IMG/VR virus record: IMGVR_UViG_2654587686_000016
Strand: one strand, 5' to 3'
DNA length: 13,445 nt
DNA from: a virus
Taxonomy: Duplodnaviria; Heunggongvirae; Uroviricota; Caudoviricetes
Shown: positions 1 through 12,027 of the stretch, piece after piece
Layout of the letters: the number at the start of each line of letters is the position of its first letter
How positions within the stretch are numbered: the stretch's first letter is position 1
Position numbers and translations under genes: made by a program
Notes under the pieces: generated by a model
Databases searched by the model: none
What the model was told of the DNA's origin: nothing
What the model saw: the letters and a program-made list of their open reading frames with translations, nothing else

Positions 1-282
1 CAGCAGGATCCCCGCGTTATTCGGGATATACGGAAGCAGTTTTTTGGCAATATGTAAGCCCTGGCCGACACAGCCGTACTGCCCTTTGCTCAGGTCTGCC
101 TTCGGATGATTCAGCGTACTCATATCCTGCACATCATGCAGGCAGTGGTCGGCCGGAATAATATCGTTATATCTGCAGGCAGCCCCACCCGGCGTCACTG
201 TACTGCGGCGCGCCAGCTGTTTAATGCGCGGATCCGGAGCATCGTATGAATCCGGCAGCGGAAGCCCTTCACCGTAAGCCAT
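1..282 (-). CDS. Partial phage gene (N-terminal ~94 codons; continues beyond the window start), function unknown
   Basis: ATG at 282-280 on the - strand opens a frame (MAYGEGLPLPDSYDAPDPRIKQLARR...) that runs to position 1 without a stop. Its start overlaps the stop of the upstream DUF968-like gene by 14 nt, and codon usage is E. coli-like. No clear SD, so translation may be coupled. Confidence 0.4.
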   Translation of the reverse strand, partial: MAYGEGLPLPDSYDAPDPRIKQLARRSTVTPGGAACRYNDIIPADHCLHDVQDMSTLNHPKADLSKGQYGCVGQGLHIAKKLLPYIPNNAGILL

Positions 283-1306
283 GGCATTGGACTGCCCGGC
301 CATTACGGCACAGCGGAATAACAAACAAATCATCAGCCTTTGTTCCCATCCCTCCCAGTCCATGACCAATGATGTGATGCGGATCATCTGCCTGATTACC
401 ACACGTCATGCATTTCTGCGTTTTTACCCAACGCGTGTATACAGGCATCTCTTCCCGTCGTGGTTTCTGGCGCTGGAGATACTGAGCCGGTGACTCCGGA
501 TCAACGGCAATGCTTACCACCGTCTTTTCCTGTGGCGGGTTTTGCTGGTGGGCGTGAGGCAGTAGCGCAATATTTTTTGTGCGCTGCTTCAGCATGCTGG
601 TGGCGGTCTGCTCTCCCGGCACGATGTCGCTCTCGCGGTATACTGAGCGAATTTTTTCCGCGCGTAATCCCAGTGAACGACGTAACACCGTCTCCGGTAG
701 TGCGTCCGCTACGTTATTTATGGTTGCCCACCAGGATAATTCAGCCAGCGATAATTCCCGCTCCTGCGTGCCATTCATTGCGTGGCGGATGACATCAATC
801 ATCCATGCTGACAGGTTTTGGTGAGCAAGCTGCCCGAGTGATTCGGAAGTCTGGTTACGCAGCTGGTTGTCGCAGTGCCAGCACAACACCATCGCGCCGG
901 TACCGTAACGATGTATGACGGTTTCACTGTGATGGTAGTCACCATGAGGCCACTGGCAGGATTTAATGTGGCGTAACAGCCAGTCAGACAATGCACCAGC
1001 ACCACCAGCAGCACGAATCACCCGCTCATCGCTGAAAAATGGCAGTAATGATTTATCCTCCGCCAGCGGCTGGCGAACAGCAGGAACGACTCCGGACGGC
1101 AGACCGCGCATGCTTTTCGGTTCCGGCTCCACCAGAACTCGAGGGTTATGAAATACCTGCATGGATTCACGGCCCGGTTTTAGCACCACCAGCCCAAGTT
1201 CCGGTACCGGAACAGGTCGAAGTAATACCCGCACGTTACCTCCAGATGCGTTGCTGGAATGTGCGGGACGGACGCGGTGGGCGTTCGGAATAAGGGAGCC
1301 TGACAT
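269..1306 (-). CDS. DUF968/YdfU-like lambdoid prophage protein with a C-terminal Cys/His cluster
   Basis: 345-aa ORF, similar in length to K-12 Qin YdfU (349 aa, from memory). C-terminus CMTCGNQADDPHHIIGHG...CRNGRAVQCH looks like a metal-binding motif. An alternative GTG start at 1234 has a strong SD (GGAGGT 4-5 nt upstream) and would remove the 71-nt overlap with the upstream ORF, giving 321 aa. Confidence 0.7.
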   Translation of the reverse strand: MSGSLIPNAHRVRPAHSSNASGGNVRVLLRPVPVPELGLVVLKPGRESMQVFHNPRVLVEPEPKSMRGLPSGVVPAVRQPLAEDKSLLPFFSDERVIRAAGGAGALSDWLLRHIKSCQWPHGDYHHSETVIHRYGTGAMVLCWHCDNQLRNQTSESLGQLAHQNLSAWMIDVIRHAMNGTQERELSLAELSWWATINNVADALPETVLRRSLGLRAEKIRSVYRESDIVPGEQTATSMLKQRTKNIALLPHAHQQNPPQEKTVVSIAVDPESPAQYLQRQKPRREEMPVYTRWVKTQKCMTCGNQADDPHHIIGHGLGGMGTKADDLFVIPLCRNGRAVQCHGLR

Positions 1307-1508
1307 AGATTATCCAGTGACGATAATCGAGGCTGAGGGCTTTCTTAATCTCGTATCCGCGTCTGCGGTAGTTATGAATTAGCCATTCGGCCTGTTCTTC
1401 AGTACATGGTGGGTGTTGGTACCAGTCGGTTTTAAATGCGTGTGAACGCCGCCCATGCCGGATGGCAAGGTCGGTATCAGAATTGTGAAATTTGGTTTTG
1501 TGCACCAT
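1236..1508 (-). CDS. Small phage protein (90 aa), function unknown
   Basis: ORF in the same orientation as the hok/DUF968 string; stop TAA at 1238-1236 lies immediately before the candidate GTG start of the DUF968 gene. Basic, Trp/Tyr-rich sequence. Confidence 0.5.
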   Translation of the reverse strand: MVHKTKFHNSDTDLAIRHGRRSHAFKTDWYQHPPCTEEQAEWLIHNYRRRGYEIKKALSLDYRHWIIYVRLPYSERPPRPSRTFQQRIWR

Positions 1509-1577
1509 CTGTTTTCTCTGCTGGCGCAGCAGGTGTCAGGTGTTCAGGCTGACGTGCGAATTGTAAACCAGAATGCC

Positions 1578-1607
1578 AGGAAAAAACAAAACCCGCCGAA
1601 GCGGGTT
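1578..1607 (-). terminator. Rho-independent terminator at the 3' end of the hok transcript
   Basis: On the - strand: stem ACCCGC / GCGGGT with loop (1591-1606), followed by UUUUGUUUUUUCC. A second hairpin, GGCGAGGGA...TCCCTCGCC at about 1640-1665, matches the fold-back 3' element expected of hok mRNAs. Confidence 0.7.
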
Positions 1608-1675
1608 AAGTGCGGGTGCGTTGAGGATGCCTGACTCATCAGAGGTGGCGAGGGATTTCTCCCTCGCCTGGTCTC

Positions 1676-1831
1676 TTACTCCTCAGGTTCGTAAGCTGTG
1701 AAGACAGCGACCTCCGTCTGGCCGGTTCGGATTCGTACCTCGCAGAGGTCTTTCCTCGTTACCAGTGCCGTCACTATGACGGTTAAACAGATGACGATCA
1801 GGGCGATTAACATCGCCTTTTGCTGCTTCAT
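1676..1831 (-). CDS. hok: Hok-family type I toxin (51 aa, HokD/RelF-like)
   Basis: Translation MKQQKAMLIALIVICLTVIVTALVTRKDLCEVRIRTGQTEVAVFTAYEPEE matches the Hok/RelF sequence as I remember it: a single TM helix and conserved Cys. SD AAGGAG lies 8 nt upstream of the ATG. The 70-aa ORF in the track is an in-frame over-extension. Confidence 0.85.
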   Translation of the reverse strand: MKQQKAMLIALIVICLTVIVTALVTRKDLCEVRIRTGQTEVAVFTAYEPEE

Positions 1832-2010
1832 AGCCTGCTTCTCCTTGCCTTTCGGCACGTAAGAGGCTAACCTACATGTGCAAAGCATGAAATTGGCCTC
1901 AGATTAATGTTAAGCGTCTTGCCGGACGCGTAATGTTAACTGGGGCTTTTCTCTATCTGCCTTTTGGTGTTCATGCCTGAGGCAGATAGCCTCAAGCACC
2001 CGCAGCAATT
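1832..2010 (-). promoter_or_regulatory. hok mRNA 5' leader with hok-like structural elements; expected location of the overlapping mok frame and the antisense sok RNA (+ strand)
   Basis: The - strand leader contains CTTGAGGCTATCTGCCTCAGG (a tac-like stem) and TAGCCTCTTAC...CAAGGAGAAG just upstream of the hok ATG, resembling canonical hok leaders from memory. The sok promoter and exact RNA ends are not mapped. Confidence 0.45.
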
Positions 2011-2388
2011 CTAACTATCCAATAGATCAATGCCAACCTCTTTTCCTGCAACATCTCTCATCAGAAGTGACCCAAATTCATCCAATCAGCACAAAAGAAA
2101 CATTTAAAGCGTGAATGCTACCGAACGTTCATTTCAATTACATCGTTTTGATTTTTAACAGTTTTCACCTCAACAAATCAAATGGCATTAGCATTCATCA
2201 TGGAAGAAAGACTGATAAAAATGATCATTTTCAATGACTTATGATCACATCGGGTATTGCCAAGTCATTCCTTTTACGCCAGGATACCCACAAGTGAGTA
2301 GTCGAGGAGAGTTTGCCAATTTTTGCGATATAAATTTCAATGTCCGAAGAACCATTAATTGTTAATTGATTCTGTATAAGGTATTAAC

Positions 2389-3486
2389 ATGACAATTTCA
2401 TATATTCCTATTCTGAAAGCGAAACGTTCTGAGTTATCAGCTTTATCGCAGCTATCCATTGAAAAGAAATCAAAAATTTTGCCATTACTCGAAATTGAAC
2501 CAGTGCCAATTGACCCTGATTCAGGTATTGCCTTAAAGAGTTATAACGAGACTCTTATAGAGTTCGGAAAGAAAGTCTCAAAATCTTGCTCAGATATGCA
2601 AGGTGTTTATATTGATGGATTATTAATTGAAGAGCATTTTATTTCTCCTGAAGATCATTACCCTATAATAAATGCGGTTAATCAAGTTAGAGATATGGAG
2701 ATAAGAGTTATTCCTGTCAGTTCACCAACTCGCCCATCTAACTATAAAAGAGCGATTGATGAATTAATGCAGAATGAAATATGCTTGAGATTAACCACGT
2801 TAGATCTGGTTAACCCACAATTAATAACGCATTACATTAATCATCTGGGAATTCCTTTATCAAATATTGATATAATTATTGACTTAAGAGATGAGTTAAC
2901 CGAGGATAAAATTAATTCCGGCGAACTATATACTTTGGCAATGGGATTGATAAACAATCTGGCGCACCTCAATGAATACAGAAAAGTGATTCTTTCTGGG
3001 GGTTCATTTCCTACAGATCTCAGTGATATTTCTGTTGGTCTATATTCTCAACCTCGAATCGAGTGGATTTTATGGCAGAGTTTAATGAATAGAAAAGAAC
3101 TTGCCAGAAATGTGATTTATAGTGATTATGGAGTACAGCACCCCGACTTTAATAGGCTTTCGACGCGATTCCCTAGCGTATCTGCCAGCGTCAGATACTC
3201 TGGAGATAATGACTTTTGGGTATTTCGAGGAAGAGTAGCTAATCGCTTTGGTTATGAACAATATGGTAAACATAGTGAGGATATTCTTGCTCATCGAGAA
3301 TATTCAGGGCCTACATTCTGTGCGGGAGATAGAGACATAGAATATTATGCAAACGAGTATCAAGCCTACAAAGCCAATCCCTCTGGTAACTATAAATTTG
3401 GTAGCCCAGAGGTATGGCGTAGGATTGGGCAAAACCATCACATAACTAAGGTTGTTGAGCAACTCGCCACTCTTTACGGGCTTTAA
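2389..3486 (+). CDS. Uncharacterised 365-aa protein, gene A of an AT-rich accessory cassette
   Basis: Long uninterrupted ORF at about 33-35% GC (counted on two 60-nt samples), with a weak SD (AAGG) 9 nt upstream. Hydrophilic, with no TM segment and no catalytic motif I can name. Preceded by a ~500-bp AT-rich ORF-free region. Confidence 0.8.
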   Translation: MTISYIPILKAKRSELSALSQLSIEKKSKILPLLEIEPVPIDPDSGIALKSYNETLIEFGKKVSKSCSDMQGVYIDGLLIEEHFISPEDHYPIINAVNQVRDMEIRVIPVSSPTRPSNYKRAIDELMQNEICLRLTTLDLVNPQLITHYINHLGIPLSNIDIIIDLRDELTEDKINSGELYTLAMGLINNLAHLNEYRKVILSGGSFPTDLSDISVGLYSQPRIEWILWQSLMNRKELARNVIYSDYGVQHPDFNRLSTRFPSVSASVRYSGDNDFWVFRGRVANRFGYEQYGKHSEDILAHREYSGPTFCAGDRDIEYYANEYQAYKANPSGNYKFGSPEVWRRIGQNHHITKVVEQLATLYGL

Positions 3487-4024
3487 GTTTAACTCGAACA
3501 GCTTCACGAAGCTCGCCAACATCCATACTATTGGCGAGTTTTGACCATAAGACGCGTTTAGGTTTATTTTTCAAATTCTGTAGCTCCCCTACATCACTTA
3601 ATAGGGAAAGCAATTCATCTTTCCAAAGAAGCATTGTTAAGGAAAGTTTGTCCACTTGTGGATTCAACTTGCTAGTTCGAATTGTTTTTAAATGGATACC
3701 TTGCCGTGCACCTTGCGTAACTTGCTTTATCCCCCACCATGATGGAACTATGCTTAAAGCATCATAAAGATGGCAATCAGAGACAACCAAAGTTACTTTA
3801 TCCATCACTGATGAGTAATGTTGCACCTGCGCTGGTAATCTGAGCAAGTTATCACTCTTGCTCTTCAACTCATAACCATGTATAAGCCCATTGATCACTG
3901 CTATATCAGCTCTGCTAGCCCCTAGATTCATCGTAAACTCATCAATGATTAGGGTGTCAGGATCTTTATGATGATCTCTCAGAATCTTGGCATGCACAGC
4001 CTTTCTTACATCAATGTCTCTCAT
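3446..4024 (-). CDS. Uncharacterised 192-aa protein with a PD-(D/E)xK-like nuclease signature, gene B of the AT-rich cassette
   Basis: ORF convergent with gene A, overlapping it by 41 nt at the 3' ends. Motif E29 ... RA-D40-IAVI ... GY-E52-L-K54 fits the D-x(n)-(D/E)xK pattern of a hydrophobic beta-strand followed by ExK. GC roughly 37-40% on two 60-nt samples. Confidence 0.75.
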   Translation of the reverse strand: MRDIDVRKAVHAKILRDHHKDPDTLIIDEFTMNLGASRADIAVINGLIHGYELKSKSDNLLRLPAQVQHYSSVMDKVTLVVSDCHLYDALSIVPSWWGIKQVTQGARQGIHLKTIRTSKLNPQVDKLSLTMLLWKDELLSLLSDVGELQNLKNKPKRVLWSKLANSMDVGELREAVRVKLKARKEWRVAQQP

Positions 4025-4329
4025 ACCATAGTTGCGCTTTCATCGACTCTCTCAAGCCATGATTCTATATCATGGTTCGCATGAATGCCATTTGATATGA
4101 CCAGTGGTTAAACATTGCACAGAAAAGTGGATGTGTATTTTAACAAAAGCAATGACGGCTAACCATGTTGGTATGTCGATAAAATGTTTCAACGTAAGCA
4201 TTATCTGTTCCGCCCTTTCAGACGGCCTCCTGATGTTCTGAGGGTGCAGAATCCCTCCGGTTAAGGGTTTAATAAAAATCGTTTCTGATTTAAATCTTCA
4301 GTATTTAGTTGTTAGTCGGTTTATAGCCT

Positions 4330-4641
4330 TTATGCTTCGGCCTTATTTCTCAGCCATACACAAACCGGGCCATCTTCGGTGTCATGTATTGAACCAATAA
4401 ACCATCCATTGCCCTCTGGTCGTTCCGGTTCCCATGCAGAAATATCAGCATCACACGCATCAAGGTCAGCACATCCTTCATCTCTGAAGCAGAGGACGTA
4501 TTGAAGATTATTTTCCTCCATCCAGGCGTTAAACTCTTCCGTTGAAATATATTCCCGACCGTCACAGAATTTTTCATATTCAGGATGCGTCCAGCAGCCA
4601 TATTCATCACGTACTACTGGTATTTCTTTAATTTCATTCAT
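4330..4641 (-). CDS. Hypothetical phage protein (103 aa), acidic and Cys-containing
   Basis: ORF in the leftward early operon; its start overlaps the stop of the upstream 84-aa ORF by 8 nt, consistent with operon packing. Confidence 0.6.
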   Translation of the reverse strand: MNEIKEIPVVRDEYGCWTHPEYEKFCDGREYISTEEFNAWMEENNLQYVLCFRDEGCADLDACDADISAWEPERPEGNGWFIGSIHDTEDGPVCVWLRNKAEA

Positions 4642-4888
4642 TTCTGTTCTCCCACGTTTTCAGACTTTCACCACAGAACGGACAAAATGAAACCCGAACT
4701 GGTAATTTAGAAAATTCACCGGAACGCAACATCACAAAATCAGGACCGCGAGTTAAACTCTCATTCCAGATTTTGTATATCAGCAGACCTTTTCGCATCG
4801 TGTATTCAGCATCATGCTCAAGGGACTTTGCCAGTGCTGCACATGGTTCTATCTTGTTGCCATTAACCTGGCATTTTGATTCACTCAC
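4634..4888 (-). CDS. Hypothetical phage protein (84 aa) with a C-terminal CPFCG zinc-ribbon-like motif
   Basis: ORF with a 4-nt overlap (ATGA on the - strand) with the upstream 140-aa gene; contains Cys pairs C6/C16 and C69/C72. Confidence 0.55.
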   Translation of the reverse strand: MSESKCQVNGNKIEPCAALAKSLEHDAEYTMRKGLLIYKIWNESLTRGPDFVMLRSGEFSKLPVRVSFCPFCGESLKTWENRNE

Positions 4889-5307
4889 CGCACCACCTCC
4901 TCAAAATTCCCCTGATAAAACGCCAGTACGCGCTGCATAACTTCGCTCTTCCGGCACTCGAGACAGATTATGTTCAGACGCCTGTCGTAGCGACGTATTT
5001 CTCCGTCAGGTAATGACCAGATAAGGTCCGGATCAACCGCAGATGGTTTCTTCAGCTTTGCCCTTGAGAGCTTTTTACGGGCATTTTGCCAGTCCTTACG
5101 CGCCTGTTCAGACGGGAATAACCCGTAACCAGAGTTGTATACATCGCCACTGGCAACCAGCTCTCTGGCCAGAACGCTCATCAGATATCTTGTTGCCCCA
5201 GTTTTAGTTTCCAGTTGTCGTAACGTCTCGCGCCCACTCTGGCGTACGAGTTCAACAACCTGCCCTTTAATTTTCTCCTGCTCTTCTTGTGTAAAAACTT
5301 TTGCCAC
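4885..5307 (-). CDS. Hypothetical phage protein (140 aa), possible HTH-containing replication-associated protein
   Basis: ORF immediately downstream of the replication initiator-like gene in the same operon. The N-terminal segment ETLRQLETKTGATRYLMSVLARELV looks helix-turn-helix-like. Confidence 0.55.
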   Translation of the reverse strand: MAKVFTQEEQEKIKGQVVELVRQSGRETLRQLETKTGATRYLMSVLARELVASGDVYNSGYGLFPSEQARKDWQNARKKLSRAKLKKPSAVDPDLIWSLPDGEIRRYDRRLNIICLECRKSEVMQRVLAFYQGNFEEVVR

Positions 5308-5347
5308 AAGCCCTCCTGAAAATTACCTCATGACCAGAAATTAACAC

Positions 5348-6325
5348 TTACCCCCTGAAGCCCGGCGGAATTTCAGTGTCCGGTTCAGAAATGTGATTCA
5401 CGCAACGCTGCGCAGGCGAACGCCCCAGGCGGATAACCAGTTCATCCCATTTTTCCCGGAGTTTTGCCGGACTCATGATGTTTTTTACCCAGAACGAATC
5501 CCGCTGGAGACGCCCAAACATTTCACAAATTTGTCTGTGAGTTCTGCCATCCAGCATCCGCATTGTGCGAACGTCATTGGCCCATGCTGTCCAGTTGGGT
5601 TCTTTCGGTCTAGTGATCTCGCCATCATCGCTGGCCGCCTGCTCGTAAAGACTCACGATTCGTCCCCAGATCCACTGTGCGCACACCAAATCTTCCTGAC
5701 TTCCCCACTGGCGTTTTTTCGCACTGAACACAACCGCGTCAGGGTGTCGGGTTAAAAAATCCTGTTCAGCCGTCTGCGGGTCCGGTTGCGAAGCGTCCGG
5801 ACAAGAAGATCTTTTATCTGACGGATCAGGTTTTAATACTGACGGATCGGGGTCAATCATCGCCCCCCTAATCGGCAGTTTTTTATCAACAGTTGATCCA
5901 TCAAAATTTGACGGGTCAACCGTTGAGGGGTCAATATTTGACGGGTCAACTGTTAACGGGTCATTTTTTGCCGGGCTAATTTTTCTTTTTGGTTTATATG
6001 ACTCACGCGCCGCCGCCGCAGCTGCTTCGAGTTTTTCCACATTAAGCCGATAGATATTGCTTACATTACGCCCACCGACCTTACGCTCTTCCTTCGTCAG
6101 CCAGCCCTCTTTCGCCAGTTCTGCAATAGCCGATTTCACTGTGGATTCACTTCTTGCACCGATCTGACGCCGGATAGTTTCAATGGCAGGCCATGACACG
6201 CCCTCGTCATTGCTGTAGTCTGCAAGACGGGCCATAACCGCCACCCTGGATAAGATCATGCCGGTGAAGGCGCACCCTTCCCAGACAAGACCATGAAGCT
6301 TGCTGCTCATAAAACCCCCGAACAC
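5348..6325 (-). CDS. Replication initiator-like protein (lambda O analogue): N-terminal winged-HTH, central 5-aa repeats encoded by the iterons
   Basis: Occupies the position after the cro-like and ydaT-like genes. N-terminus is HTH-like (SRVAVMARLADYSNDEG...TVKSAIAELAKEGWL). The internal repeat DPSNIDPSTVDPSNFDGSTVD corresponds to 15-bp tandem DNA repeats. The ORF starts at a GTG; an ATG at 6310 with a GGGGG SD 5 nt upstream is the more likely start. Confidence 0.75.
   Translation of the reverse strand: MFGGFMSSKLHGLVWEGCAFTGMILSRVAVMARLADYSNDEGVSWPAIETIRRQIGARSESTVKSAIAELAKEGWLTKEERKVGGRNVSNIYRLNVEKLEAAAAAARESYKPKRKISPAKNDPLTVDPSNIDPSTVDPSNFDGSTVDKKLPIRGAMIDPDPSVLKPDPSDKRSSCPDASQPDPQTAEQDFLTRHPDAVVFSAKKRQWGSQEDLVCAQWIWGRIVSLYEQAASDDGEITRPKEPNWTAWANDVRTMRMLDGRTHRQICEMFGRLQRDSFWVKNIMSPAKLREKWDELVIRLGRSPAQRCVNHISEPDTEIPPGFRG
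5820..5965. repeat. Iteron array (candidate phage replication origin) inside the replication initiator gene
   Basis: Four 15-bp tandem repeats start at 5910, 5925, 5940 and 5955 (GACGGGTCAAC / GAGGGGTCAAT / GACGGGTCAAC / AACGGGTCATT), with two degenerate copies at 5820 and 5841. An AT-rich tract follows at 5961-6000 (TCATTTTTTGCCGGGCTAATTTTTCTTTTTGGTTTATATG). Confidence 0.6.
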
Positions 6326-6332
6326 CGTGCTT

Positions 6333-6758
6333 TTAGTGCATCACCACAGCATTCCCTGCCGGGCCGCCGCGATTCATCTGGTCATACAAAACAACCGCTG
6401 ACGCAACAAAATCATCGACATCCTTCACCAGCCGATCCCTCCGTTCGACGATCTCACGGTAATATTCAGAACTGTGGCTGCGCATACGGGCCACCAGCAA
6501 AGGCGGCATCGCCTTTTCGATCGCCGGTAACAGAGCCTGCATTTTTTCAACAGCATCAGGGGTGTCTTTATCCAGCCAACGGAAAATTTTCTGGGTATTA
6601 CGGGCCAGGGCTTCCGGATGGCTGTCGTCGTACAGTTCAGGGAACGTCATCCCCAGTTCGAAATAAGTCCGGGCTATTTCAGCTGCAGGAACTTTCTCAC
6701 CATCAGGGTATGCCCAGGCATTCATCGCCATGCGGATGTGCTCATGTTTGATTTTCAT
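6333..6758 (-). CDS. ydaT: YdaT-like protein (141 aa)
   Basis: Second gene of the operon divergent from the repressor, overlapping the upstream cro-like gene by 17 nt. Length matches K-12 Rac YdaT (about 140 aa, from memory), with SD GAGG upstream. Confidence 0.7.
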   Translation of the reverse strand: MKIKHEHIRMAMNAWAYPDGEKVPAAEIARTYFELGMTFPELYDDSHPEALARNTQKIFRWLDKDTPDAVEKMQALLPAIEKAMPPLLVARMRSHSSEYYREIVERRDRLVKDVDDFVASAVVLYDQMNRGGPAGNAVVMH

Positions 6759-7065
6759 GAATCATTTGCCTCTTGATGCTTCGGGTATGATCGTTTTCGT
6801 CATTTGGTTGCTTCATCGACATATTCTGCGAATAACATGACGAGCGTCGTAAGTATGTCCAATCAACATCAGGACGAAGTTCTTCACACAGGACACCACC
6901 TTTTGTTGCTCGTTCAATCGCAGGACATCTCTCAGCAGGTAACTGACGTACACCTTTGATCCATTGATTTACGCTTGGAGGAGATACACCTAAAAGCCTA
7001 GCCATTGCTGATTGCCCACCGACAACAGCACAAGCTCGTTTGAATGAATAGTTATCTTTTTTCAT
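6742..7065 (-). CDS. ydaS: Cro/CI-type HTH DNA-binding protein, YdaS-like (first gene of the rightward-equivalent early operon)
   Basis: MKKDNYSFKRACAVVGGQSAMARLLGVSPPSVNQWIKGVRQLPAERCPAIERA closely resembles Rac YdaS as I remember it. The ATG at 7065 has GGAG 9 nt upstream; the upstream in-frame ATG in the ORF track lies within the RBS. Divergent from the repressor gene. Confidence 0.75.
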   Translation of the reverse strand: MKKDNYSFKRACAVVGGQSAMARLLGVSPPSVNQWIKGVRQLPAERCPAIERATKGGVLCEELRPDVDWTYLRRSSCYSQNMSMKQPNDENDHTRSIKRQMIHENQT

Positions 7066-7089
7066 CGAATGAACTCCAAAAAACACGCA

Positions 7090-8518: not shown

Positions 8519-9086
8519 TAGCTAACCAACGAAGCTAAGGTTGGTAATTAAGGAGTTCTCCACGGGTGAGGTGGAGTGCTTGCGCCGGACACGGGTGAGC
8601 ATCCGGCACTGACAGTTTACTGAAAGGATATTTCCCTGAAAAGTCAGACCATAACGCGAAAGCGCACGGCGAGGTAGCTGGTTCATAGATAGCCTGTCGT
8701 TAAATTTTTGTCGACCGTGCGCTTCCGGTTGTGGCAATCCGCGAAATGGCGCGGCGGTAAGTATGGCGGGGTTATTCCTTCCCCCGTTGCGGACACCGGG
8801 TTGTCAGGTTGACCATACGCTTAAGTGACAACCCCGCTGCAACGCCCTCTGTTATCAATTTTCTGGTGACGTTTGGCGGTATCAGTTTTACTCCGTGACT
8901 GCTCTGCCGCCCTTTTTAAAGTGAATTTTGTGATGTGGTGAATGCGGCTGAGCGCACGCGGAACAGTTAAAACCAAAAACAGTGTTATGGGTGGATTCTC
9001 TGTATCCGGCGTTAATTGTTAACTGGTTAACGTCACCTGGAGGCACCAGGCACCGCATCACAAAATTCATTGTTGAGGACGCGATA

Positions 9087-9555: not shown

Positions 9556-12027
9556 ATGAGTAAAGTCTTTATTTGCGCCGCCATTCCGGACGAACAGGCA
9601 ATAAAGGAAGAAGGTGCAGTCGCTGTAGCCACTGCCATTGAAGCCGGTGATGAATGTCGCGCCCGCGCAAAATTTCACTGGCAATTCCTGGAACATTATC
9701 CGGCTGCTCAGGACTGCGCTTATAAATTTATTGTCTGCGAGGATAAACCTGGCATACCCCGCCCTGCCCTCGATTCATGGGATGCTGAATATATGCAGGA
9801 AAACCGCTGGGATGAGGAGTCTGCTTCTTTTGTCCCGGTTGAGACTGAATCCTATCCGATGAACGTCACTTTTGACAAGCTGGCCCCTGAAGTACAGAAC
9901 GCTGTCATGGTTAAGTTCGACACATGTGAAAACATCACCGTTGATATGGTTATTAGCGCACAGGAATTGTTGCAGGAAGACATGGCAACATTCGACGGAC
10001 ATATCGTTGAAGCGTTGATGAAAATGCCAGAAGTTAACGCCATGTATCCGGAGCTTAAGTTGCACGCCATTGGGTGGGTTAAGCATAAATGTATTCCTGG
10101 TGCTAAATGGCCCGAAATTCAGGCAGAGATGCGCATCTGGAAAAAACGTCGCGAAGGTGAACGCAAGGAAACCGGAAAATACACGTCTGTTGTTGATCTC
10201 GCCCGCGCCAGAGCCAATCAACAGTACACTGAAAATTCAACAGGAAAAATCAGCCCGGTCATTGCTGCCATTCATCGCGAATACAAGCAGACATGGAAAA
10301 CACTGGATGACGAACTGGCCTACGCTCTCTGGCCTGGTGATGTGGATGCCGGAAACATTGACGGCAGCATCCATCGCTGGGCAAAAAATGAAGTTATCGA
10401 CAACGGCCGCGAAGACTGGAAGCGTATCTCGGCATCAATGCGCAAACAGCCTGATGCCCTTCGCTACGACCGCCAGACTATTTTTGGCCTTGTCCGTGAA
10501 CGTCCGATCGACATTCACAAAGATCCCGTAGCACTGAACAAATATATCTGCGAATACCTGACGACAAAGGGCGTGTTTGAGAATGAAGAAACAGACCTGG
10601 GCACTGTTGATGTTCTCCAGTCATCAGAAACACAAACTGATGCAGTGGAAACTGAGGTATCTGATATCCCAAAAAATGAAACCGCGCCGGAAGCTGAACC
10701 ATCTGTAGAGCGTGAGGGGCCGTTCTACTTCCTCTTCACCGACAAGGATGGCGAAAAATACGGTCGCGCAAACAAACTTTCTGGTCTGGATAAGGCGCTG
10801 TCTGCTGGGGCTACTGAAATCACGAAAGAAGAATATTTCGCCCGCAAAAACGGTACATACTCAGGTTCACAACAAAATACTGGTGCATCTGACACGACCG
10901 CACAACCAGGGTCAGTAAAAGTTACCGCTGACGAAGTAAACAAAATTATGCAGGCAGCCAATATCAGCCAGCCTGACGCCGATGAACTGCTTGCAGTATC
11001 ACGTGGTGAATTTGTTGAAGGGATTAGCGACCCGAATGATCCGAAATGGGTTAAGGGGATCCAGACCCGCGATTCTGTGAACCAGAACCAGCAAGAAACG
11101 GAACAGAACGACCAGAAAGCGGAACAAAACAGCCCAAATACGCAACAAAACGAGCCAGAAACGAAACAACCTGAACCAGTAGTGCAACAGGAACCGGAAA
11201 AGATCTGCACCGCCTGCGGTCAGAGCGGTGGCGGCAACTGCCCTGATTGTGGTGCGGTGATGGGTGACGCAACATACCAGGAAATATTCGATGGAGAGAA
11301 TCAGCCTGAAGTTCAGGAAAATGATCCGGAGGAAATGGAAGGCACTGCGCATCAGCACAAGGAGAACACTGGCGGCAATCAGCATCATGCCAGCGATATT
11401 GAAACTGGCGAGGCGTCAGATCCCTTAATTAAGGCGAACGGTCATCATAATCTCACATCCACCAGCAGAGCGGGGATTCATCTGATGATCGACCTTGAAA
11501 CCATGGGAAAAAATCCCGATGCCCCGATTATCTCAATAGGTGCAATATTTTTCGATCCGCAAACCGGAGATATGGGACCGGAATTTAGTAAGACTATCGA
11601 TCTGGAAACTGCTGGCGGAGTCATTGATCGGGACACCATTAAATGGTGGCTTAAGCAATCACGCGAAGCGCAATCTGCCATTATGACCGATGAAATCCCG
11701 TTAGATGATGCACTGTTACAATTGCGGGAATTTATCGACGAAAACTCCGGTGAATTTTTTGTTCAGGTCTGGGGAAATGGAGCCAACTTCGACAACACGA
11801 TTTTGCGCCGTTCATACGAACGGCAGGGGATCCCCTGCCCGTGGCGTTACTACAACGATCGCGATGTACGCACAATCGTTGAGCTGGGGAAAGCCATAGA
11901 CTTCGATGCCAGAACGGCTATTCCATTCGAAGGTGAGCGCCATAATGCACTTGATGACGCCCGTTACCAGGCAAAATACGTTTCAGTTATCTGGCAAAAA
12001 CTGATCCCGAGTCAGGCTGATTTTTAA
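9556..12027 (+). CDS. Large exonuclease (823 aa) in the RecE position: C-terminal DnaQ-like DEDDh 3'-5' exonuclease domain, central Q/E/N-rich linker and a CxxC...CxxC zinc ribbon
   Basis: Long ORF with GAGG 9 nt upstream. C-terminal motifs MIDLETMG (Exo I, D-x-E), VWGNGANFDNTIL (Exo II) and HNALDDARYQA (Exo III, H-x4-D) are seen directly. Zinc ribbon CTACGQSGGGNCPDCG at nt 11207-11257. The low-complexity linker has a T-poor DNA repeat at about 11090-11200. Confidence 0.8.
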   Translation: MSKVFICAAIPDEQAIKEEGAVAVATAIEAGDECRARAKFHWQFLEHYPAAQDCAYKFIVCEDKPGIPRPALDSWDAEYMQENRWDEESASFVPVETESYPMNVTFDKLAPEVQNAVMVKFDTCENITVDMVISAQELLQEDMATFDGHIVEALMKMPEVNAMYPELKLHAIGWVKHKCIPGAKWPEIQAEMRIWKKRREGERKETGKYTSVVDLARARANQQYTENSTGKISPVIAAIHREYKQTWKTLDDELAYALWPGDVDAGNIDGSIHRWAKNEVIDNGREDWKRISASMRKQPDALRYDRQTIFGLVRERPIDIHKDPVALNKYICEYLTTKGVFENEETDLGTVDVLQSSETQTDAVETEVSDIPKNETAPEAEPSVEREGPFYFLFTDKDGEKYGRANKLSGLDKALSAGATEITKEEYFARKNGTYSGSQQNTGASDTTAQPGSVKVTADEVNKIMQAANISQPDADELLAVSRGEFVEGISDPNDPKWVKGIQTRDSVNQNQQETEQNDQKAEQNSPNTQQNEPETKQPEPVVQQEPEKICTACGQSGGGNCPDCGAVMGDATYQEIFDGENQPEVQENDPEEMEGTAHQHKENTGGNQHHASDIETGEASDPLIKANGHHNLTSTSRAGIHLMIDLETMGKNPDAPIISIGAIFFDPQTGDMGPEFSKTIDLETAGGVIDRDTIKWWLKQSREAQSAIMTDEIPLDDALLQLREFIDENSGEFFVQVWGNGANFDNTILRRSYERQGIPCPWRYYNDRDVRTIVELGKAIDFDARTAIPFEGERHNALDDARYQAKYVSVIWQKLIPSQADF

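Follow-up and report, generated by a model that had tools for sequence, protein, structure and literature searches.

Many abortive-infection systems are toxin–antitoxin (TA)-like. An earlier source on one system of interest here, the gop-beta-cII genes of the satellite P4, is reportedly Ghisotti et al. 1990, as cited in Rousset et al. 2022. The three P4 genes, which DefenseFinder and PADLOC list as Rst_gop_beta_cll, protect against phages lambda and P1, and gop and beta behave as a TA-like pair (Rousset et al. 2022, PMC9122126); killing by the system is triggered by a phage accessory gene (bioRxiv 10.1101/2023.04.06.535777). PD-lambda-2 is also TA-like, and its Beta-family component C is needed for defence (Vassallo et al. 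2022, PMC9519451). Prophage defence hotspots, too, are an established kind of locus, described for P2 and P4. Here, we consider a stretch of phage DNA of 13,445 nt (IMG/VR record IMGVR_UViG_2654587686_000016; "the window" hereafter), a piece of a Rac/Qin-type lambdoid prophage in which a cassette of two genes, A and B, lies next to a complete hok/mok/sok type I TA module. Taken as a whole, the segment at 2014–4209 is probably horizontally acquired cargo in a lambdoid recombination hotspot 5′ of hok, and the gop-less beta-cII core that it holds would serve as an anti-phage module.

The limits of the exchanged segment were drawn from alignment with AVS0786 and many viral loci. Homology with other prophages always stops at position 2013 on the side of hok and restarts at 4210 on the far side, which places the breakpoints at 2013/2014 and 4209/4210. 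AVS0786 aligns to window positions 306–2013 and 4210–6766 (98.3% identity); between the two blocks, it has 2438 bp of small phage genes that are unrelated to the window. The 2196 bp that hold the beta/cII-like cassette have a GC fraction of 0.378, against 0.541 for positions 1–1587, 0.523 for the hok module and 0.494 for 4330–6758. On the left, the segment is bounded by the 426-bp hok/mok/sok module (1588–2013, minus strand), which serves as the homology anchor, and on the right by a conserved 57-nt linker (4210–4266, minus strand), of which 42 of 83 loci have one copy, in the same orientation. The linker usually lies directly 5′ of the first gene of the slot, often a DUF7167 gene, and is flanked on both sides by DNA that varies from locus to locus; it does not appear to be a structured RNA, with no Rfam match and a fold z of −0.96, which is not significant. 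An earlier note on this DNA had predicted short conserved recombination boundaries, and these are present at 2008–2013 and 4210–4266. The same note had the exchange span 1676–4329; judged by where homology ends, the exchanged part is 2014–4209 rather than 1676–4329 or 1889–4329.

What occupies this position in other phages? We compared 80 viral contigs anchored on hok. In the 59 of these loci that have both hok and DUF977, the interval between the two ranges from 917 to 4108 bp and takes about 44 open reading frame (ORF) architectures, and larger cargo recurs directly 5′ of the hok module, frequently encoded on the opposite strand. Known defence systems are found as cargo in roughly 15 of the 80 loci. 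These are Kiwa, represented by KwaA and KwaB (L013 and L074; E-values 1e-101 and 1.5e-159); Septu, by PtuA and PtuB (L054; 2e-165 and 1e-83); Rst_3HP, by PADLOC model matches to Hp1-3 (L003); a PD-T4-6/Stk2-like Ser/Thr kinase with a PP2C phosphatase (L008); PDC-S15, an FRG-domain protein (L052; 7e-99); and PDC-S39, a DUF7380/DUF4209 protein (L062; 3e-102). Other loci carry an SMEK protein with a methyltransferase (L022, L025, L035 and L072), a KAP/STAND-like NTPase (L029), a DUF5677 protein (L018), NUDIX and HAD hydrolases (L042) or an IS66 element (L037, 5510–7839). Several gene sets are without any match, and some loci have small phage genes only. Complete RefSeq genomes with the same backbone give a similar picture: the slot holds a DUF4209 protein gene in GN02270, an alpha/beta hydrolase gene in O145:H28 strain 16003, and only DUF7167, DUF4014 and DUF551 genes in others.

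Flanks and cargo are combined as a mosaic. In eight of the viral loci (L011, L028, L043, L046, L049, L063, L066 and L070), r1 and the replication flanks are 100% identical to those of the window, but the cargo is another one, and different cargo lies between flanks that are 98–100% identical to the window's. In phage Rac-SA53, on the other hand, the cassette, hok and r1 stand on a different backbone; the labels given to the two genes by the authors of that phage are "beta" and "CII phage-like". Among 5426 complete E. coli genomes, the hok module is present (at least 80% coverage) in 4020, at 11040 places (median 2, maximum 10 per genome), compared with 184 for the right flank and only 93 for the cassette (again at least 80% coverage). 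In nearly all of the 80 viral loci, the module is 94–98% identical, and Stx phages also have it by itself, as hokW, at further positions. The suggestion that the position is a swappable hotspot for TA or defence cargo is borne out by the number of architectures, the matches to defence models and the identical flanks with other cargo; what would have spoken against it, A and B as an invariant core of the phage lineage, is clearly not what the genome counts show. The hotspot is, in other words, well supported.

How was the cargo exchanged? Most likely, homologous recombination took place between lambdoid phages that shared a host cell, as residents or in co-infection, and lambdoid prophages are often present in several copies per genome of Shiga toxin-producing E. 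coli (STEC). The left flank for recombination would be the near-ubiquitous hok module and the right flank either the 57-nt linker or the small phage genes next to it. The exchange seems to proceed without a recombinase of its own: no transposase, integrase or recombinase is found in the ORF list for 2014–4209, and a search for direct or inverted repeats and target-site duplications around the cassette returned only short pairs of low identity, typical of AT-rich DNA. It is the junctions at conserved sequences, the nested junction types, the mosaic of flank and cargo identities and the lack of a recombinase that, together, argue for homologous recombination.

The cassette itself consists of two convergent genes. 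Gene A (2389–3486, plus strand) encodes a Beta_protein family member of 365 aa with a predicted TIM-barrel fold (PF14350, E-value 7e-52). Its best PADLOC models are those of PD-Lambda-2_C (PDLC03983, 1.4e-40, residues 4–362), with a value of 1.5e-4 for the "beta" model, and by BLASTP it is 23% identical to P4 beta over the full length (1e-8). Gene B (3446–4024, minus strand) encodes a 192-aa protein of the sce7726/Phage_P4_cII family, in which a PD-(D/E)XK nuclease fold is joined by a helical domain at the C-terminus. It matches NF033832 (sce7726) with 191.1 bits, against a curated cutoff of 70, over residues 1–184 of the 184-position model; it also matches the PADLOC model "cll" (2.4e-28) and P4 cII (28% identity, 2e-17 by BLASTP), and its homologues carry the precomputed Pfam assignment PF26915 (Phage_P4_cII). 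E29, D40, E52 and K54 are invariant, forming the conserved E...D...ExK motif in what was recognized as a restriction-endonuclease-like fold. B therefore belongs, by fold and motif, to the PD-(D/E)XK superfamily and is predicted to be a nuclease. Gene A had no match among the NCBIfam models at E-values up to 0.01. The family sce7725 is the partner family of sce7726, and gene A is at most a putative member of the sce7725 model; no function for the sce7725/sce7726 pair was described in the literature searched.

Gene A is preceded by an AT-rich, non-coding leader (2014–2388), and gene B by the region 4025–4209 (minus strand), which has an ORF of 43 aa at 4070–4201. A promoter-like site upstream of B, ATGGCA-18-TAGAAT, extends from 4091 to 4062 on the minus strand and is a consensus match only. 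The 13-nt sequence ATCAAATGGCATT occurs at 2177–2189 and at 4084–4096, in the sense direction upstream of both A (−212) and B (−72), and a match of such length was seen in none of 200 shuffles. The copy on the side of B overlaps the promoter-like −35 box. We considered ATCAAATGGCATT as a shared operator of A and B and rejected it, since no equivalent is shared in 11 homologous cassettes of other species.

Outside the lambdoid phages, the two genes keep the same company. We collected 82 Beta_protein loci (within L083–L167) from genomes of many phyla, including Enterobacterales, Aeromonas, Bacillota, Bacteroidota, Myxococcota (Sorangium), Nitrospirota, Planctomycetota, Acidobacteriota, Patescibacteria and others. 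In 80 of these, the Beta gene is convergent with a cII-like gene and the 3′ ends overlap by 8–140 nt, most commonly by 50, 44, 41 or 32 nt; the other two run off the contig. In the window, the overlap is 41 nt (3446–3486). This is an unusual and strictly conserved two-gene architecture. Paenibacillus and bacteria of the candidate phyla radiation (CPR) have the pair, and so does a P2-like prophage hotspot; in Dickeya zeae, the pair occupies the published P2 hotspot between gpA and the portal gene, beside hicAB. The Beta family as a whole comprises 4332 clusters at 50% identity (E-value at most 1e-3) among 1.84 billion representative proteins.

The upstream partner, by contrast, varies. It is gop in P4, a co-directional gene for an Xre helix-turn-helix and Peptidase_M78 protein of about 410 aa, resembling PD-lambda-2 component B, in 31 distant loci (for example, L104 and L113), and a gene for an unannotated protein of about 200–240 aa in 10 more (for example, L085 and L134). 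There is none in the window's own subfamily. A tblastn search of the window for gop gave only a chance match of 15 aa (E-value 4.8), and the ORFs in 2014–2388 are just 40–43 aa long; a hidden gop was looked for and rejected, in the window as in the 82 Beta loci. Judged by homology, then, the cassette is a gop-less relative of both P4 gop-beta-cII and PD-lambda-2, and the distant loci suggest that PD-lambda-2-type systems normally include a cII-like nuclease outside the published definition.

At its other end, the cassette adjoins a hok module in which all parts of a hok/sok locus are present: the Hok coding sequence, an overlapping mok, the sok/leader RNA and promoter-like and terminator-like sites, all on the minus strand. 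The hok coding sequence lies at 1676–1831 (PF01848, E-value 2.7e-23), overlapped by the 70-aa mok frame in the ORF list at 1676–1888; the sok match is at 1826–2001 (Rfam RF01794, 119.8 bits against a gathering score of 59), and a terminator-like hairpin was found by the site scan at 1590–1607. The promoter scan placed the promoter-like site of hok from 2036 to 2008, straddling the junction: its −10 box, TAGAAT (2008–2013), comes from the conserved module, and its −35 box, TTGGCA (2031–2036), lies inside the cargo DNA. Of the cargo types examined, most have a TTGGCx or TTTGCG box on the same side, with a spacing of 17 nt from TAGAAT; no such box was seen at the Kiwa-type junction.

Some further features of this junction may be mentioned. 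The edge of the cassette on the side of hok (2034–2061) is 71% identical over 28 nt to the first 28 nt of gene B (3997–4024, beginning ATGAGAGA), which may be the remnant of another cII-like gene start or simply chance. In many loci, there is a small ORF, "c12", between cargo and hok; its translation looks non-genic, so that it was rejected as a gene and treated as conserved non-coding or small-peptide sequence. A second variable site is found on the other side of hok, between its terminator and the small ORF and DUF968 gene. This site holds genes for a 204-aa protein and a 381-aa Xre-M78 protein in phage Tritos (L088, 2638–4394 and 5518–6852) and rem in K-12 and Rac-SA53, and is empty in the window. 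The neighbourhood is also a repeated target of insertion sequences (IS1203, IS1 and IS66). IS1203 splits the hok leader in O111:H- strain 11128 (L002, 4653–5866), and in Rac-SA53, IS1 lies between the cassette and the 57-nt linker (L089, 5076–5841), with an 8-bp duplication that corresponds to window positions 4182–4189.

What, then, might the cassette do? Its published relatives, gop-beta-cII and PD-lambda-2, protect against phages, and by this analogy it is most likely a prophage-expressed anti-phage module of the abortive-infection type. It would be expressed from the prophage in the lysogen, with B as a nuclease effector and A restraining or licensing B, whether by binding it, by an enzymatic step or in response to a phage product that A senses, and the two genes may be coupled in their expression by convergent and overlapping transcription. 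Several points weigh against this picture. Defence by the two-gene form is argued from its relatives, and in these, the extra components (gop in the one, the HigB-like and Xre-M78 proteins in the other) may carry the toxic or sensing activity. The viral contigs were picked for a 100%-identical Hok and may include redundant isolates, and the defence calls for the other cargo are single-protein matches to PADLOC or Pfam hidden Markov models, not full system calls. In many loci, ordinary small phage genes fill much of the slot (DUF7167, DUF4406, Ead/Ea22, DUF551 and QueH); seen as a whole, the region is a mixed accessory region of the mosaic kind, of which defence cargo makes up only part, and the counts of defence genes in it are raw counts.

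Other explanations would give the cassette a different role altogether. If A and B were a stable core of the phage lineage at an invariant site, for example, a lysogeny regulator as the name "cII" suggests, one could understand why some records label B homologues "regulatory protein", why the P4 gene bears that name and why the copies of the cassette in STEC genomes are 99.9% identical. We find this barely conceivable: in the complete genomes, the cassette is much rarer than the hok module and rarer than the right flank, identical flanks hold other cargo, the pair is also found in a P2-like hotspot, in Paenibacillus and in CPR bacteria, and B has kept its invariant nuclease motif. An addiction or stabilisation pair, in which B is the nuclease toxin and A its antitoxin, would maintain the prophage rather than defend it. 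That would be in keeping with the tight linkage of the genes in the Beta loci, with the neighbouring TA module and with the TA-like behaviour of gop/beta (PMC9122126) and of PD-lambda-2 (PMC9519451); nevertheless, it is unlikely as an alternative to defence, since these same relatives protect against phages and the slot is populated by bona fide defence systems. Addiction and defence are not, in any case, mutually exclusive.

Anti-phage cargo could also have reached the slot in another way than by homologous recombination, namely as a discrete mobile element that transposed or integrated site-specifically. The insertion sequences near the slot in O111 11128, Rac-SA53 and L037 could be taken to favor this, as could the block with relBE in locus L038, which does have the look of an insertion, given its DDE transposase gene and the 15-nt duplication. 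The segment at 2014–4209, however, has no transposase or integrase and neither terminal inverted repeats nor a target duplication, and both of its junctions are sequences conserved among many mosaics, with several nested alternative junction types, so that arrival of the cassette as such an element is very unlikely. The L038 block bears on a further possibility, raised in the earlier note, that relBE of the K-12 Qin prophage and the A/B cassette are alleles of one slot. Both do lie immediately 5′ of hok, on the side of the replication genes. But homology of K-12 to the hok module ends at the equivalent of window position 1845, only 14 nt 5′ of the hok ATG, and this breakpoint (1845/1846, in the hok leader) is 168 bp away from that of the cassette (2013/2014). 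In L038 (5504–9244), the hok module is cut in two: its 5′ half, with promoter and sok, comes first, then a 3.3-kb block, then hokD, and the ordinary slot upstream of the block still has small genes of its own. The block carries a gene for a 446-aa DDE transposase (HTH and rve_3), which is the full-length form of the K-12 "ydfW/intK" remnant, followed by flxA, ydfV, relB and relE; it is 99.7% identical to K-12 (L001, 7471–9805), and GGAGAAGCAGGCTAT is found at both of its junctions. The K-12 break and the split hok module of L038 point to a different insertion event: the relBE block entered the hok leader separately and does not compete with the cassette for 2014–4209; the allele reading is scarcely tenable. 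This would also account for an oddity of K-12, in that the relBE-hokD operon of Qin appears to stem from insertion into a hok leader. With its hotspot upheld and its relBE allele given up, the interpretation in the earlier note is partly supported.

The rest of the comparison with Qin is more straightforward. K-12 Qin (L001) reads ydfU (DUF968), a 92-aa ORF, rem, hokD, relE, relB, ydfV and flxA. The order relB-relE-hokD followed by DUF968, as given in the earlier note, is thus correct, except that rem and a small ORF separate hokD from ydfU. As was also claimed, hok and DUF968 keep the same relative order in the window, which reads DUF968, a 90-aa ORF and hok/mok/sok, and what lies 5′ of hok is the AT-rich A/B cassette in place of relBE, with no match to RelB or RelE: a tblastn search with the K-12 proteins gave no match in the window at E-values up to 1e-5, and matches in L001, L034 and L038 only.

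We now turn to the genes around the slot. The minus strand is read as the early-right operon, with a cro-like gene (6742–7086), a YdaT-like gene (6333–6758) and a gene for a replication-initiator-like HTH protein (5348–6325, minus strand; PF13730 and RefSeq context), and it is this last gene that places the slot in the replication-to-Q (nin-like) region, between the replication genes and the Q antiterminator. Between it and the linker are the DUF977 gene (4885–5307, minus strand; PF06163, E-value 9.8e-29), which was the tblastn anchor in the 59 loci, and two small conserved phage ORFs of 103 aa (4330–4641) and 84 aa (4634–4888) on the minus strand, together 4330–4888 in the ORF list; these two ORFs are 100% identical in the eight loci named above, whose cargo is another one. 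Beyond hok, in the interval to DUF968, lies the 90-aa conserved hypothetical ORF (1236–1508, minus strand; ORF list), which is annotated in RefSeq in O111 11128, AVS0786 and K-12, and then the YdfU-like DUF968 gene itself (269–1306, minus strand; PF06147, 3e-50), homologous to K-12 ydfU and part of the conserved backbone downstream of hok. The far side of the window has a cI-like gene, DicF, an exonuclease gene, xis and int. The DicF small RNA (8861–8912, plus strand; Rfam RF00039, 76.7 bits) fits a Qin/Rac-like dicB region and is, with sok, the only Rfam match in the window. Near-identical DNA is found in the chromosomes of STEC O111 and O26.

Why does this slot matter? The P2 and P4 hotspots have been productive sources of new anti-phage systems, and the hok slot is comparable and belongs to the commonest class of E. 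coli prophage. No description of a hok-adjacent lambdoid defence hotspot was found in the literature searched, although an earlier one may exist. The hotspot is easily anchored, since some three quarters of complete E. coli genomes contain the hok module, frequently more than once, and the linker or DUF977 marks the other side, and the 80 loci sampled already gave matches to about ten known or candidate defence systems. Candidates in the slot that correspond to no known system are a trio of 365, 142 and 234 aa, the DUF5677 protein, a 484-aa protein and a pair of 310 and 184 aa. The trio, a candidate new system, takes up about 2.5 kb on the opposite strand directly 5′ of hok in five loci (L046, L049, L063, L066 and L077), the first four of which have flanks identical to the window's; these loci add a Q-like antiterminator of 177 aa (PF06530). 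None of the three proteins had a Pfam or PADLOC match, and the idea that the 365-aa protein (L046 type) is a divergent Beta protein was rejected for the same reason.

For gop-beta-cII and PD-lambda-2, the comparison shifts the emphasis from three-gene sets to an invariant unit of beta and a convergent, cII-like gene with a nuclease fold. Current annotation tools use three-gene definitions and would therefore miss the cassette in the window. It is possible, although we hold the two linked ideas only tentatively, that beta-cII is an ancient, autonomous two-gene immune core and that hok/mok/sok is the portable docking site of the hotspot. The pair spans Enterobacterales, Firmicutes, Myxococcota and CPR bacteria, and gop, the HigB-like and Xre-M78 proteins and the protein of about 200 aa may be interchangeable add-ons to it. 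The TIM-barrel partner might then be enzymatic, for example, in modifying nucleic acid or in making or removing a small molecule, and the pair might work like a restriction–modification or sensor–effector pair regulated by convergent transcription. As for the docking site, the anchor is ubiquitous and its promoter reaches across the junction, and hok addiction and defence cargo could in this way be inherited as one unit.

Compared with the relBE-hokD operon of Qin, the locus has the same backbone order of hok, rem (in K-12), a small ORF, DUF968 and Q. It differs in that K-12 hokD is without its own promoter, sok and part of mok, relBE having replaced or split the hok leader; in the window, the module is intact and relBE is absent. 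The likeness to P4 gop-beta-cII lies in the genes themselves, A being homologous to beta and B to cII, in the topology of beta followed by a convergent cII (P4 reads gop and beta on the plus strand and cII on the minus strand) and in the setting, since both are cargo in a hotspot of a mobile element. On the other hand, the window has no gop, and its host element is a lambdoid prophage; identity to the P4 proteins is only 23–28%, B (192 aa) is without the C-terminal extension of about 70 aa found in P4 cII (264 aa), and in P4, a terminator separates the 3′ ends of beta and cII, which overlap in the window. With PD-lambda-2, the cassette shares the component that gene A matches best, PD-Lambda-2_C, but no ORFs for the HigB-like A or the Xre HTH and M78 peptidase B components are found in or adjacent to 2014–4209. 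The published three-gene definition of PD-lambda-2 is, for its part, without a cII-like gene, yet the distant Beta loci with an upstream Xre-M78 gene all have one. B, as a member of sce7726, links the cassette to the sce7725/sce7726 pair as well, and the Sorangium locus L128 has a convergent Beta and cII-like pair.

With the P2 and P4 defence hotspots, finally, the slot shares a conserved framework that brackets a short variable segment in which known defence systems are included, and Kiwa, Rst_3HP and the beta/cII pair are among the cargo in both settings. The framework, however, is a different one, made up of hok/mok/sok and the 57-nt linker or DUF977 in Rac/Qin-like lambdoid prophages, and the slot also holds ordinary small phage genes. 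What further sets it apart is that one of its boundaries is a type I TA module whose −35 box is supplied from the side of the cargo.

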